Below, piece after piece: positions 36,838 to 59,785 of a stretch of DNA of 64,000 nucleotides. The stretch lies in contig CBDANF010000002.1 of NCBI GenBank assembly GCA_965197475.1, positions 1,433,507 through 1,497,506 of the forward strand, written 5' to 3'. The stretch is from Candidatus Poribacteria bacterium (lineage in GTDB: Bacteria > Poribacteria > WGA-4E > WGA-3G). A program made the translations under genes and the position numbers. The notes beneath the pieces were generated by a model. That model made no database searches. It was not told the origin of the DNA and saw only the letters and a program-made list of their open reading frames with translations. The first letter of the stretch is position 1; every line of letters starts with the position of its first letter.

Positions 36838-37332
36838 TCAAATAGCATTTGAATCTTCGTCTATAAGTTGTATGTCCATCACATCAGCAATAAGGCGTAT
36901 TGCATGCTGGAGTAGGTCTCCTCCTTTGGTGAGGTCTTGGGTCGGTATTTTTCCAAGATTGTGATTTAAATCTTCAAGTGGCGTGAGTCCGAAATTCTCC
37001 ATACCTTCAAGCATCCCCTCAAGATATCCCAGCCCTGGCATTTCCAAGTCTCGTACATCATCAAGCATTCGGTAAAACATGATGTCCTCTGTGTAGTATT
37101 TTTCATATAAGGTCGGATACCCCTCATATCTGTCAAGGGATTTCTCATCTTTTTCAGAGATTTCCCAGAGACCGCCTTTCACGGATTTGCCTTGCACAGG
37201 AGTTATATCGGCGTAGAAGCGAAAGACAAGTTGATATCCTTGCAGTGTATACGCACCGAGAGGTTGTGCGGTGGGACATCGCCACTGCATGTGCTTGATA
37301 TTGAGATTTGATCCATAGGCGAAGTATTTCAT
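36838..37332 (-). CDS. Gamma-glutamylcyclotransferase-like (AIG2) protein
   Basis: YFAYGSNL..M..RCP and LDRYEGYP..Y motifs. Confidence 0.88.
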   Translation of the reverse strand: MKYFAYGSNLNIKHMQWRCPTAQPLGAYTLQGYQLVFRFYADITPVQGKSVKGGLWEISEKDEKSLDRYEGYPTLYEKYYTEDIMFYRMLDDVRDLEMPGLGYLEGMLEGMENFGLTPLEDLNHNLGKIPTQDLTKGGDLLQHAIRLIADVMDIQLIDEDSNAI

Positions 37333-37460
37333 GGTCAGGAATTAATTTCTGAACCAGAATTAAGGGTCAAAACGGAGCAATTCGTTTTCAAAATCAGTTA
37401 TCAGTTGAGAATATTTTACATGAGATAAAATCTTTCTAACTGATAACTGATTATATGTTT

Positions 37461-38129
37461 CTAAAATAACAGAGATAAAACAGAAGATTCTTGACGTGGA
37501 TCGTCATCGTTTTTTTCAGCAGTTTTATATCCGAAAATTTCAATTTCACCTATTTCGGCAGAGGCAATGCGTTTGGTGGGACCACCTGTCCCACTACCTG
37601 AGCCTCACGAGGAGCCGCTTGAAAGATTGCAGAGTTGTGCTGCGAGATCAACTTCGTTCCGTGTAAAAGAAGCATCGTCTGTCGTTCCTAAAACGACAAG
37701 ACGGATACGATCCGTAGGAAATGAGTATAAAATCGGAATGACAATCTTACCGGAATTGGCATTTTGTTCCTCTTTTATCAAATTCCAGTCCGTCCCTGAG
37801 ATTGGACTGCCTCCTTTATCTGCATAAAGTTTAAATTTCTTGATATTATCTGAGTGAATAACGATCTTTCGGATTATCTTTTTTTCTGGTAAGGTAATGA
37901 CAACTTCAGGTAGGGAATTTTTGCCTGAGAGACTATTAGCAGAATTCGTTGAACTTGTTTTACCTACGGTACTGATATCACCGTCAATCATTTGTGGGTT
38001 GGTTGCTTGAGTGCCATCAAGGAGCGTGTAGTTATCGCTCCATTCTTGTTGTGAAAGTAGGGCACTACAACCTGCCATAATTACAACAAAGCAGACGAGT
38101 GAAATGATAAGGGCGAATCTGTAAATCAT
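37461..38129 (-). CDS. Lipoprotein with a discoidin-like fold and an in-frame TGA (candidate selenoprotein, 222 aa)
   Basis: MAGC lipobox; TGA at 37605-37607 followed in frame by GSGSGTGGPTKRIASAEIGEIEIFGYK... to TAG 37461-37463; hairpin 10 nt after the TGA. Confidence 0.7.
37576..37594 (-). promoter_or_regulatory. Candidate bacterial SECIS element
   Basis: GTGGGAC-AGGTG-GTCCCAC, a perfect 7-bp stem with a GGU-containing loop, starting 10 nt after the UGA. Confidence 0.6.
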
Positions 38130-38204
38130 TTGTAACTCCTTATTGCGCGCGAATTTAGTATGAGTATTCTTCTTCTGTGAAGATATACAGTTTTACCTCT
38201 CCAT

Positions 38205-38351
38205 TTGTTATATACTATATATTAACAAATTTTAATATGTATGTCAAGAAAAATTGTTATATACTATATATTAACAAATTTTAATATGTATGTCAAGAAA
38301 AATTGTTATATACTATATATTAACAAATTTTAATATGTATGTCAAGAAAAA
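38205..38351 (-). repeat. Perfect 49-bp x3 tandem repeat, each unit a sigma70-like promoter
   Basis: Units start at 38205, 38254 and 38303; the minus strand reads TTGACA-17 bp-TAATAT with a TGn extension. Confidence 0.85.
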
Positions 38352-38630
38352 GATAAGGTTATTTAGTTTTAGGTTTTCAGAATGCAGCATTGGGACTTAG
38401 CGCGCTATATTTCGCGTAAATCTGGGTTACAAACCCCTCCCACAAGAGAGGTGATCCGTAGGTTGGGTAAGCACAAGGAACCCAACAAACCGACCGCCGA
38501 TAGCCGACCATCGACAGACACAGCTACTTATAGTTTGTATCAAATGACCCCATGAGTTATACTATTAGTATTCGTTAAACTAACGAGTAGATGTCCTCGG
38601 ATCCCCGATAATCTATTCATGGAGGTCGAT

Positions 38631-39488
38631 ATGAACCGCAAGAAGGATACCGCTTACGGTATCACTCGGCTCGAATCCAAGAATGCCAGAGCCGCGATTA
38701 TTCAGAAGATTTCAGCAGACTTTAATCTCATGCCTCTCGTTGCTGAAGCCTACTATAAACAGATTTCTACCTACTTTGAACAACACGCCGATGTGCAACT
38801 CACATCAGGGCAAATCTGCTACGAGGCAGTCGCCGCTGAGGAACCCGCAGGCAAACACATCGCTTTAGCGAAAAAAGTCTCCTGTCGACTCAAACTCAAC
38901 GATGTTGAAGCCGACCTTGAAGTTTTAGCGACTTATGGGCTCGCAGGTCTCAGACGGCATCGGATCCTCCGATTGACCCAAGAAGCTTATGACCAAGAAG
39001 CCTTGCTGAGTTATGAGGATTTGGCGGTGTTATTAACCACCAGTCCTGCCACCGTCAAACGCGACATCCGAGCGTTGAAGCAGTCCGGCTATTTCGTGAT
39101 GACGCGCGGGGCGAAACACGACATAGGCCCGGGACTGTCTCATAAGACGCAGATTCTTGAGTTGTCCTTCAAAGCATACACCTTCACCGAGATTGAGCAA
39201 AAGACGAACCACTCCGAACGGGCCGTCTACCGCTACTTGAGGGACTTCACACAAGTCGCCACGCTCCATTATCAAGGTTTTCCTAACGCACAGATACGCC
39301 TGATCACCCATCTCTCTGACCGGTTGATCCGCGAGTATCTCTCACTCTATGAGGAATACCAACACACCGATCGCATGACCCAACTCCTTCACCCAGAACC
39401 CGTGGAGAAAAAAAGGAGGAACTCTGATGAGCAAACCTTTGACGCGCACGCAAATCAACGAGAAGAAGTTCAGACGCATCAACGATAA
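38631..39488 (+). CDS. DUF1670-like HTH protein 1
   Basis: RLTQEAYDQEALLSYEDLAVLLTTSPATVKRDI...TRGAKHDIGPGLSHK...TNHSERAVYRYLRDF; GGAGG before ATG 38631. Confidence 0.8.
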   Translation: MNRKKDTAYGITRLESKNARAAIIQKISADFNLMPLVAEAYYKQISTYFEQHADVQLTSGQICYEAVAAEEPAGKHIALAKKVSCRLKLNDVEADLEVLATYGLAGLRRHRILRLTQEAYDQEALLSYEDLAVLLTTSPATVKRDIRALKQSGYFVMTRGAKHDIGPGLSHKTQILELSFKAYTFTEIEQKTNHSERAVYRYLRDFTQVATLHYQGFPNAQIRLITHLSDRLIREYLSLYEEYQHTDRMTQLLHPEPVEKKRRNSDEQTFDAHANQREEVQTHQR

Positions 39489-40311
39489 ATCGCTACGACA
39501 GTTGCTGATCCACCGCTTTCTCAATGACTATGGTTATGACAAAGGCGAAGTCACTGCCACCGCCATTGTTGATGATATTCTTAAGACCGTTGAAGACTAT
39601 TTCGTGATTACCCTTCCTTTGGAGAAACTCGCCACCGGCGATCAACTCCCGGATGAGCGTTTCTTGAGTTATGGACAACTCGTTTGGATGGCCGTCCCTA
39701 TTGAAGAGCATCCAGAAAGAGGAAAGTCCATCGTCAAAACCCGCATGAAACCCGTCATCCTGACTTACCTCGCCGCAGAGGATATTGAATCCTTTCGCAA
39801 CGGTTTCACCTCCCGGCAATTGCGGATCAATCGCTTGGTCCGCTGGTGTCATCAAGCTTATGACCAAGGGGCATTATTGACCCAACTCGACTTGGCAGTT
39901 TTGCTCAATGTCTGCGATGCCGTTGTCTGTGATTATGTTAATGAATGGCAAAAAACCACTGGAGAACTCTTGCCCACCCGTGGCAATATCCATGACTTAT
40001 CGGGGGCTATTACCCATAAGAAAGAGATCATAACCCTCTATCTTCAAGGACATCTCACCCCCAGGATTGCCGCAAAGACCAAACACTCTAAGGAGGCAGT
40101 TGATAGATACATTCGCGATTATGAGAGCGTCAAAGTCGTTCGGAAAGCAACCACAGATATTGATAAAATCTCACAGATTACACGACTTTCTAAACGCGTC
40201 ATCTCTCAATATCTCGACCTCATACCGCAGCACCAACTCCAAGCCATAGATGCAGACCTTGCCAATTCAGACTCAAACGATGAAGCCACTCACCAAGGAG
40301 AAGCCCAATGA
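39427..40311 (+). CDS. DUF1670-like HTH protein 2
   Basis: QAYDQGALLTQLDLAVLL...PTRGNIHDLSGAITHK...TKHSKEAVDRYIRDY; paralogous to protein 1; AGGAGG RBS. Confidence 0.8.
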   Translation: MSKPLTRTQINEKKFRRINDKSLRQLLIHRFLNDYGYDKGEVTATAIVDDILKTVEDYFVITLPLEKLATGDQLPDERFLSYGQLVWMAVPIEEHPERGKSIVKTRMKPVILTYLAAEDIESFRNGFTSRQLRINRLVRWCHQAYDQGALLTQLDLAVLLNVCDAVVCDYVNEWQKTTGELLPTRGNIHDLSGAITHKKEIITLYLQGHLTPRIAAKTKHSKEAVDRYIRDYESVKVVRKATTDIDKISQITRLSKRVISQYLDLIPQHQLQAIDADLANSDSNDEATHQGEAQ

Positions 40312-58951: not shown

Positions 58952-59785
58952 ATGGCGTACAAAGGTTATGAGAATCCGCAACTGGTAATTTCAGTTGAGG
59001 AATTGAAAAACAGCCTTGACGATGAAACGTTTTGCATCGTTGATACACGTCCGACACATGAATATATCCGCGGACATATTCCAGGAGCACTTCATCTGGA
59101 TCTGTTTGGGTTGAGTCTCATCAACACGCGCAAAGAGACTTTTGATACTTTTATGTGGATGATCGCTTACCTGTTCCAACAACGAGGTCTTCATCCAGCT
59201 AAAACAATTATTTGGTATGAGGACATTTCAGGAACACACGCCTCTCGAGGATTGTGGTTTTGCGAGTATTTAGGTCATTCTAATACAAAATTGCTGGATG
59301 GAGGTTTCAAAGCATGGTTAGCAGCAGACGGACCAGTCAGTACAGATGGTGTTGAACCTCCTGAAGTACCACAATTCCCAGTTGAAGCAGCACACGATAC
59401 GCACATGGATGCTGACGTGATTCATGCCCTACTAAACCGAGACGATTTCGTCCCCCTGGACACGCGTACGGATGATGAACATTACGGTAGAGTCGCTCGC
59501 GCAGAACGCGCAGGTGCAATTCCCGGTTCTATCCACATTGAGTGGCTCAATAATCTCGATGAAACTGGTGCGTTCAAACCAGCTGCTGAACTTAGAGAAA
59601 TGTATGAAGCAGTTGGAATCACACCGGAAAAACAGGTAATGTGCTACTGACAGGGCGGATACCGCTCTTCCCAAACCTATTTGGCACTGCGGCTTATCGG
59701 TTATCCGAAAGTAAGCAACTACATTGGGTCATGGAAAGAGTGGGGAGACCGGCTGGATTTGCCGGTTGAAATTCCTGAGGAATAG
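58952..59785 (+). CDS. Two-domain rhodanese/sulfurtransferase with TGA at the catalytic position (candidate selenoprotein)
   Basis: GHIPGA and LLDGG..W motifs; VMCY*QGGYRSS...NYIGSWKEW continues in frame to TAG 59783-59785. Confidence 0.85.

Follow-up and report, generated by a model that had tools for sequence, protein, structure and literature searches.

The subject of this work is a gene for a predicted lipoprotein on the minus strand of a 64,000-nucleotide stretch of DNA from a Candidatus Poribacteria bacterium (assembly GCA_965197475.1, contig CBDANF010000002.1, positions 1,433,507 to 1,497,506; this whole stretch is called the window hereafter), the reading frame of which carries a single in-frame TGA. 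The open reading frame (ORF) 38129..37605 encodes 174 amino acids (aa) and terminates at the TGA 37607..37605; when this TGA is read as selenocysteine (Sec, U), 47 sense codons are added up to a TAG at 37463..37461 and the product reaches 222 aa in total. As defined by the translation and by a full-length alignment to homologues through the TGA, the coding sequence occupies 37464..38129 on the minus strand, with its ATG at 38129..38127 and the TAG directly outside, and a Shine-Dalgarno-like AAGGAG can be read on the same strand at 38136..38141, 6 nt ahead of the ATG. The TGA (37605..37607) becomes residue 175 in the context AAQLC-NLSSGSS-U-GSGSGTGGPTKRIASAEIGEIEIFGYK, in which the Cys is residue 167 (codon TGC, 37629..37631, minus strand), giving locally a C-x7-U pair with U flanked on its 3' side by GSGSG. 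An original prediction made from the letters of the DNA had described an ORF ending at this TGA with 47 further open codons, together with the context LCNLSSGSS-U-GSGSG, and both are borne out by the translation. We are highly confident that the feature is real and a selenoprotein, and only slightly less so that the gene in the window encodes a genuine Sec-containing lipoprotein, a judgement which does not extend to the redox function discussed below.

Conservation of the TGA and of the coding sequence behind it

The distribution of the gene was followed through 101 genomes of the taxonomic family and then 176 genomes of the phylum, where the best 150 matches were listed and about 300 weaker ones lie beyond. 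The lipoprotein family is found in 101 of the 101 and in 175 of the 176 genomes, respectively. Among the best 150 matches, 35 gene copies have exactly one TGA together with an alignment over nearly the whole query, and these copies come from 30 of the 40 genomes of the genus g1 (39 searched and the window's own), with no TGA form in any other genus among the matches listed. Two to four TGA-bearing copies are seen in some genomes, partly in tandem, for example at locus L027 in genome G022, in G018 (four listed) and in G026. From the loci L021-L049 we extracted 29 read-through genes; the TGA is present in 29/29 of them, with U in one alignment column in 28 and offset by one residue in the other. 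Hence the homologues keep the TGA at the very site for which the original prediction had considered Gly, Ser or Arg as the outcome that would speak for a mutation or a read error.

A search of protein databases with the read-through protein returned 256 matches, 120 of which were listed. Among these 120 clusters, 70 have 56-99% identity, a length of 154-205 aa and a coverage of at most 81% of the query, and the other 50 have 46-54% identity and a coverage of 91-100%. When 71 of the truncated proteins were fetched, most of them were found to end with G[GS][ST] right before the TGA (TGST in 26, SGST in 15, SGSS in 14). For new selenoprotein families, three criteria are put forward in the accessible part of 10.1101/2022.07.06.499078, namely at least ten examples, 100% TGA and a similarity running through U, and all three are found in the present family.

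The sequence 3' of the TGA is conserved in the manner of a coding sequence. Summed over the 29 genes, the stops behind the UGA number 0 in frame, compared with 54 and 213 in the other two frames. At the three codon positions, the pairwise differences amount to 0.26/0.18/0.52 before the UGA, to 0.34/0.26/0.52 behind it and to 0.22/0.15/0.48 within the conserved C-terminal core of the part behind it, and thus the substitutions behind the UGA concentrate at third codon positions. Moreover, the residues E195, I196, E197 and G200 behind the UGA are invariant in 40 aligned Sec and non-Sec members of the family. These observations bear directly on the reading in which the TGA is a true stop, the product being a 174-residue lipoprotein and the 47 codons being untranslated remnants or conserved only as RNA. 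It agrees with such a stop that gene callers end the protein at the TGA in every database entry seen, and that the folding z-score of the region is unremarkable; however, the frame behind the UGA is open in all 29 genes with many off-frame stops and a third-position bias, the invariant E-I-E..G last strand is common to the full-length paralogues, and a product cut at residue 174 would miss a core strand of the sandwich fold described below. We therefore regard a true stop as very improbable. The remaining suspicion, a nonsense mutation, a pseudogene or a sequencing error in a single genome, has nothing on its side except the single TGA itself, and is refuted by conservation to the point of being negligible, with the same TGA present in 30 genomes, in one further DNA-type run and in the contig sets of three RNA libraries, without change at the site.

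As for these RNA libraries, four sponge metatranscriptome runs contain 74-81% of the sampled words of the stretch, and contigs of three libraries span the gene with the TGA unchanged (37441-38263, 37029-38278 and 37035-38234). It must be set against the read-through interpretation that such contigs show the presence of the sequence only, and not transcription, translation, transcript ends or expression level. In one RNA library the depth figure of the contig with the gene is above that of its neighbour, a kind of figure that cannot rank genes.

A hairpin behind the UGA and the machinery for selenocysteine

A hairpin resembling a Sec insertion sequence (SECIS) lies at 37576..37594 on the minus strand, with its onset 10 nt past the UGA. 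The strands GUGGGAC (37594..37588) and GUCCCAC (37582..37576) form a perfect stem of 7 bp around the apical loop AGGUG (37587..37583), with 17 nt from the UGA to the apical loop and an energy of -11.2 kcal/mol for the isolated hairpin, and the stem-loop announced by the original prediction at 10 nt after the UGA is thereby recovered letter for letter. According to the accessible part of PMC13188914, a bacterial SECIS (bSECIS) should have a loop of 3-9 nt, a stem of 4-16 bp, a G in the first two loop positions, a spacing of 16-37 nt and a minimum free energy (MFE) of at most -7.5 kcal/mol, and the hairpin in the window satisfies all these rules. They were applied by our own strict script of the published rules, which takes perfect stems only and the energy of the isolated hairpin; with this script, the background is 35 of the 2465 TGA trinucleotides in the window (1.4%). 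Under relaxed rules (a stem of at least 5 bp and a folding energy of at most -3 kcal/mol), 27/29 Sec genes pass as compared with 10.4% of the window TGAs, and with the energy limit set at -6 kcal/mol there remain 23/29 Sec genes as compared with 3.4%. Rfam at gathering thresholds gives no match in the window, a result of little weight, as Rfam is not known to include a general family for bacterial SECIS elements.

Taken alone, the hairpin is weakly unusual, and it is the conservation that lifts it above chance. In fact, all 28 distinct downstream regions of the Sec genes carry a hairpin, and these fall into two classes. A joint alignment of the 28 regions threw the two classes out of register, and therefore they were analysed separately. 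In class I, with 18 sequences including that of the window, the stem has the form [UC]G[GA]G[AC]C / G[UG]C[CU]C[AG] with a loop NGGNG; 91.5% of the cells are paired, a share that falls to 32.5-56.3% if one strand is shifted against the other by 1-3 columns, and three of the seven pairs are changed on both sides, namely GC to AU in five sequences, AU to CG in one and UA to CG in two. Such changes alter the peptide in a coupled way (GTGGP, ETGGL, GPGGP), which is better explained by RNA pairing than by a protein constraint. In class II, with 10 sequences, a different hairpin is located a few nt further downstream (GGCGGC/GGGGC - AGUUC - GCCGUC/GCCUC), where 90% of the cells are paired compared with at most 65% when slid, and one pair has changed from CG to GU. 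The class II genes correspond to one well-supported clade of 11 in the tree (a duplicate sequence was omitted from the alignment), and two non-homologous hairpins thus serve two subclades. The conservation and stem covariation on which the original prediction had made its hairpin depend are therefore present, with compensatory changes in both classes.

Several results nevertheless weigh against the hairpin as a decoding signal, and with it against the Sec interpretation. The strict script passes just 13 of the 29 Sec genes, and L041 and L042, the two that also fall short of the relaxed rules, have one A.C mismatch in the stem. Since the genes are closely related, their compensatory changes go back to a small number of separate events, some two or three for class I and one for class II. 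For the 76-nt hairpin region of the window z is -1.72, a stability that 10 of 200 shuffled sequences also reach; the mean z is -0.41 for the 29 Sec genes and +0.26 for 9 paralogues. Folding energy was accordingly tried and rejected as a line of support, the z being significant neither for the window nor for the family, with no separation between Sec genes and paralogues. The G+C content of the hairpin region is 0.44-0.65 in the Sec genes compared with 0.30-0.52, and the mean fold is -21.2 compared with -11.0 kcal/mol, a difference that we did not count as support.

The genome of the window (5.7 Mb in 3 contigs) has the complete set of selA, selB, selD and a tRNA-Sec, all above curated cut-offs, and the check for selA, selB, selC and selD suggested with the original prediction thus turned out positive for all four components. 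The scores are 610.8 bits for selA, 349.8 bits for selB (cut-off 242), 370.4 bits for selD and 75.1 bits for the tRNA-Sec (cut-off 47); the last adjoins selB, is called tRNA-SeC with anticodon tca by ARAGORN, and is the only tRNA of the genome above the tRNA-Sec cut-off. We infer that the UGA at codon 175 would be decoded as Sec by the SelB/tRNA-Sec system of the cell, a decoding which the intragenic hairpin with its apical loop AGGUG, 17 nt past the UGA, would direct, and that the gene 38129..37464 would consequently yield one exported lipoprotein of 222 residues and not a product of 174. A further reading is that the UGA is recoded with a residue other than Sec, through a SECIS-dependent Cys-inserting tRNA of the tRNA-ReC type or through near-cognate read-through giving Trp or Cys. 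The data at hand are silent on the identity of the inserted residue, and in some Sec-using phyla, as reported in the accessible part of PMC13582414, tRNAs of the tRNA-ReC type decode UGA as Cys with a SECIS. However, the sole tRNA above the tRNA-Sec cut-off adjoins selB and has the anticodon tca; both selA and selD are present, therefore the Sec-tRNA can be made; and a Cys product would predict that relatives with TGC or TGT are common, of which none was seen among the relatives examined. Such a recoding appears improbable to us, if somewhat less so than a true stop, and Sec is retained as the reading of the codon.

Two further genes of this genome concern the use of Sec. The selD gene (G000:C3:3099237-3100163, locus L011) has one in-frame TGA in the context KCAG-U-ASKL, and the selD of the window's genome is itself a selenoprotein. 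A small hairpin, AGCUC-CGGGU-GAGCU, can be read by eye 11 nt past its UGA, and the MFE structure from RNAfold chose another. Inside the window, the second Sec-like gene mentioned in the original prediction is real as well and is a further selenoprotein candidate; it lies at 58952-59785 on the plus strand and encodes a two-domain rhodanese similar to 3-mercaptopyruvate sulfurtransferase (PF00581, E 1.4e-35), with a TGA at 59648-59650 within CY-U-QGGYRS. We take the U to stand at the catalytic Cys position, going by the usual C-x-x-G-x-R loop. Its hairpin begins only about 2-5 nt 3' of the UGA, which is nearer than the usual bSECIS spacing. NCBIfam holds models named 'rhodanese-related (seleno)protein', and rhodanese-related selenoproteins are consequently a known kind.

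Fold of the protein and the Sec-Cys pair

At its N-terminus the protein has a putative signal peptide with a lipobox VIMAG-C21 (38067..38129, minus strand), so that the mature protein is predicted to begin at Cys21, with the lipid anchor on this residue. The residues G20 and C21 are invariant in the 40 aligned family members, the N-terminus reads as hydrophobic, and a helix is placed at residues 2-26, the signal peptide, by an AlphaFold2 model; the lipoprotein status of the protein in the window is predicted from its sequence. The model was computed from the 40-sequence alignment with a mean pLDDT of 73.9, and shows a beta-sandwich, a helix at 152-169, a loop at 173-182 that contains the Sec and has a pLDDT below 50, and a confident strand at 192-200. 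This last strand of the core, IGEIEIFGY (residues 192-200, 37530..37556, minus strand), is encoded behind the UGA and has a mean pLDDT of 89 over residues 191-200. When the model was compared with the PDB by Foldseek, 155 matches were obtained at E <= 0.001, led by CBM32 and chitosan-binding modules, APC10/Doc1 and IFT25; the top matches have E values from 2.7e-7 to 1e-5 with target TM scores of 0.64-0.78, the best having E 2.7e-7 and TM 0.77. The ESM Atlas, which we use as a lead only, also points to F5/8 type C clusters. The fold therefore seems to be a beta-sandwich of the galactose-binding, discoidin or CBM32 kind, as far as the model can tell, and the fold search with CBM32 modules as its top matches lends support to the suggestion in the original prediction that IGEIEIFGY resembles the closing strand of a discoidin/F5-8-like domain.

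In its sequence, the protein shares with F5/8 type C/CBM32 modules an N-terminal motif of the type DG..T.G and the closing strand ..EIE.YG, both of which we take to be typical of the F5/8 type C domain, and in its predicted structure it shares the beta-sandwich of these modules (PDB 4a42, 4zxe, 2v72). It differs from them in having no Pfam match at threshold, in being a single-domain lipoprotein without an attached carbohydrate-active enzyme, and in the predicted helix 152-169 and long flexible loop inserted ahead of the last strand. Against the assignment of the fold stands the result that PF00754 (F5/8 type C) scores below its gathering score in every member tested, the best being 18.8 compared with 28.2 bits in a distant relative (P0141). 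Pfam and NCBIfam give no family at threshold for the protein in the window or its paralogues, and the family is small: of 1.84 billion representative clusters, 177 match at E <= 0.001. No known member of F5/8 type C/CBM32 with Sec was found in our literature search.

On this model, the mature protein would be a single sandwich of the discoidin/F5-8-type-C/CBM32 type, tethered to the membrane by its N-terminal lipid-modified Cys, in which the last core strand comes from the residues behind the Sec, and a flexible loop rich in Gly and Ser, immediately ahead of this strand, holds the Sec. Because the post-Sec residues form the last core strand, folding would be possible only with read-through of the UGA. 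The discoidin-like body probably supplies binding to some ligand or partner.

The Sec is accompanied by a Cys that changes its place. In 27 of the 29 Sec genes there is exactly one Cys within 8 residues of the Sec, and its position depends on the subclade, at -8 in 5 genes (the group of the window), -6 in 6, +1 in 5, +5 in 10 and +6 in 1. The C-x7-U of the original prediction is accordingly present in the gene of the window, but it is not a fixed motif, as the partner Cys shifts between subclades. In 27/29 genes the mature protein has no other Cys besides the lipid-anchor Cys, and in the non-Sec paralogues the loop is about as long and contains no Cys. We propose that the Sec and the one nearby Cys, as the sole thiol/selenol pair of the mature protein, would be its functional centre, because a single roaming Cys stays near the Sec, the loop is disordered and there is no other thiol.

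The relation of the Sec form to the rest of the family is unusual. In the full-length relatives examined, with the protein database search covered by 120 of its 256 matches, there is no Cys at the Sec position, a point that also counts against a selenoprotein, and in 107 of 108 fetched relatives with the last strand there is no Cys in the preceding 38 residues, the sole exception being a distant protein. As no homologue examined has a Cys at the Sec position, the usual argument from Sec/Cys pairs is unavailable here. The closest non-Sec relative, L050, has Ser or Asp aligned with the Sec, depending on a one-residue gap. In the tree, the 29 Sec genes fall together with a small non-Sec lineage (L050/P0053) in a single clade of good support (99/98) whose internal branching is unresolved, a topology compatible with a single gain of Sec. 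An origin of the Sec gene by duplication of the tandem 'GCH'-type neighbour was considered and rejected, as the tree groups the Sec clade with another branch. From such data one may suppose that the family never had a Cys form, and that within a single poribacterial genus a variable loop in a lipoprotein module of the carbohydrate-binding type acquired the Sec, the Cys and the SECIS, after which the partner Cys was re-placed at least three times and the hairpin was replaced once; to us the arguments for and against this history seem evenly balanced. If it is true, it would break the working rule of Cys homologues for every selenoprotein, and a class of selenoproteins would exist that is invisible to searches based on Cys/Sec pairs.

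What the pair does can be approached from its chemistry and from the domains found with it. The pair may form a reversible selenylsulfide, and the loop would then be a redox-active element in an extracytoplasmic thiol-redox network, an assignment to which we give a tentative preference over a soft-metal site, because a TlpA-like Redoxin/AhpC-TSA domain is the one partner to which members of the family were seen fused. This domain is present at the C-terminus in 2 of the 12 longer relatives scanned, P0170 (370 aa) and P0200 (388 aa), of which P0170 retains WCGPC; P0200 has SPST instead, and its copy is for this reason probably redox-inactive, while a cluster mate of P0200 is named 'TlpA family protein disulfide reductase [Candidatus Poribacteria bacterium]'. 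It speaks against the redox assignment that it is founded on a fusion in just two relatives, one of them without CxxC, and that two Sec genes, L023 and L049, have no partner Cys. Among the distant members, P0137, P0140 and P0141 (426-439 aa) have a C-terminal extension of about 220 residues without a Pfam match.

Alternatively, in a protein that is likewise a genuine selenoprotein, the Sec-Cys pair could bind a soft metal or metalloid (Hg, Cu, Cd, As, Zn), which would make it an extracytoplasmic lipoprotein for the capture or sensing of metals. With a selenol and a thiol at free spacing in a flexible Gly/Ser loop, bidentate chelation fits as well as a selenylsulfide. Exported lipoprotein or substrate-binding selenoproteins with CU/CC motifs have been predicted to bind organometallic ligands (accessible part of 10.1101/2022.07.06.499078), and about 70% of the predicted Sec-ligand contacts involve metals (accessible part of PMC13188914). 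In the neighbourhood, moreover, a Fur-like ORF is recognized by eye in 5 of 30 loci (L030, L036, L038, L039, L043); an ATPase of the Mrp/NUBPL Fe-S P-loop type occurs at 20 of the 30. Set against these points, no metal-binding fold or motif was found in the protein, the neighbours are cytoplasmic housekeeping genes which flank the non-Sec paralogue too where the Sec form is absent, and the only domain fusion in the family is to a thiol-disulfide reductase domain. A metal site thus seems rather unlikely to us, and the redox-active selenylsulfide remains our tentative choice.

Relation to known selenoproteins and genomic neighbourhood

The family, which belongs to sponge-associated bacteria, is a new one within a known kind, the bacterial selenoprotein with an intragenic SECIS. 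The prototype of this kind is fdhF of E. coli, and the protein in the window belongs to none of the families listed in the accessible part of PMC13188914, from which the consensus is taken; it departs from the fdhF-type consensus in having two non-homologous hairpins in two subclades, with short isolated stems that often fail the strict energy test. With SaoB, SaoX and SaoC, the exported or lipoprotein selenoproteins with Cys-Sec motifs put forward by Haft, as far as they are described in the accessible part of 10.1101/2022.07.06.499078, it shares a Sec paired with a nearby Cys in a non-thioredoxin fold. Unlike them, it has a discoidin-like fold in place of an ABC substrate-binding fold, it has no conserved transporter operon beside it, and it lacks the Cys-form members which those families possess, none being found here.

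The statement in the original prediction that the context matches no known selenoprotein family agrees with our searches, with 0 Pfam matches, 0 NCBIfam matches and no describing paper found. The literature searched on Poribacteria, selenoproteins, discoidin and sponge symbionts, with supplementary tables lying outside the search, holds no description of the family. In the main text of the prokaryotic selenoproteome review (PMC13188914), the terms lipoprotein, discoidin, Poribacteria, periplasmic and secreted are all absent, and Poribacteria are not mentioned in the accessible part of the deep-Sep paper (PMC12013277). The family is thus absent from the libraries and papers checked, and could be listed in supplements under another name. 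It is unusual in four traits: the fold is of a binding type, the loop that holds the Sec is disordered, the partner Cys changes its position, and no Cys form was found among the relatives examined.

Such a family is of interest in several respects. The entries of 70 listed protein clusters and at least 30 genomes are mis-annotated, because the cut at the TGA removes a core strand and the probable active residue. According to the accessible part of the deep-Sep paper (PMC12013277), Cys homologues now seem to exist for all known selenoproteins, and deep-Sep may overlook families that have none. Selenoprotein finders at present select for Sec/Cys pairs, and for them a family that is well supported but lacks a Cys form would be both a test case and a warning. 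Moreover, the question why Sec is used at all can be studied here in an unusual setting, where the Sec lies in a disordered loop, the fold is of a non-redox binding type and the partner Cys moves.

As to the neighbourhood, a gene for a GGACT/AIG2-like gamma-glutamyl cyclotransferase is located downstream on the same strand (36838..37332, minus; PF06094, E 1.4e-12), and such a gene stands next to a family member in 21 of 30 loci; beyond it, on the opposite strand, follows the Mrp/NUBPL P-loop ATPase. In the ten genomes of the genus without a listed TGA form, the non-Sec paralogue fills the slot upstream of the GGACT gene, and in several genomes the non-Sec paralogue and the Sec gene stand in tandem. 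The conserved neighbours are therefore uninformative on Sec, because the non-Sec paralogue holds the same slot.

Upstream of the gene, at 38205..38351 on the minus strand, there are three identical tandem units of 49 bp, each with a promoter-like site TTGACA-17-TAATAT with an extended TG, pointing at the gene; the copy number is provisional, as the short-read DNA contigs break inside the array. Further upstream, two overlapping DUF1670 (PF07900) genes with helix-turn-helix motifs lie at 38619-39488 and 39427-40311, both on the plus strand, and this pair may be an insertion, because other genomes have the non-Sec paralogue in that place.

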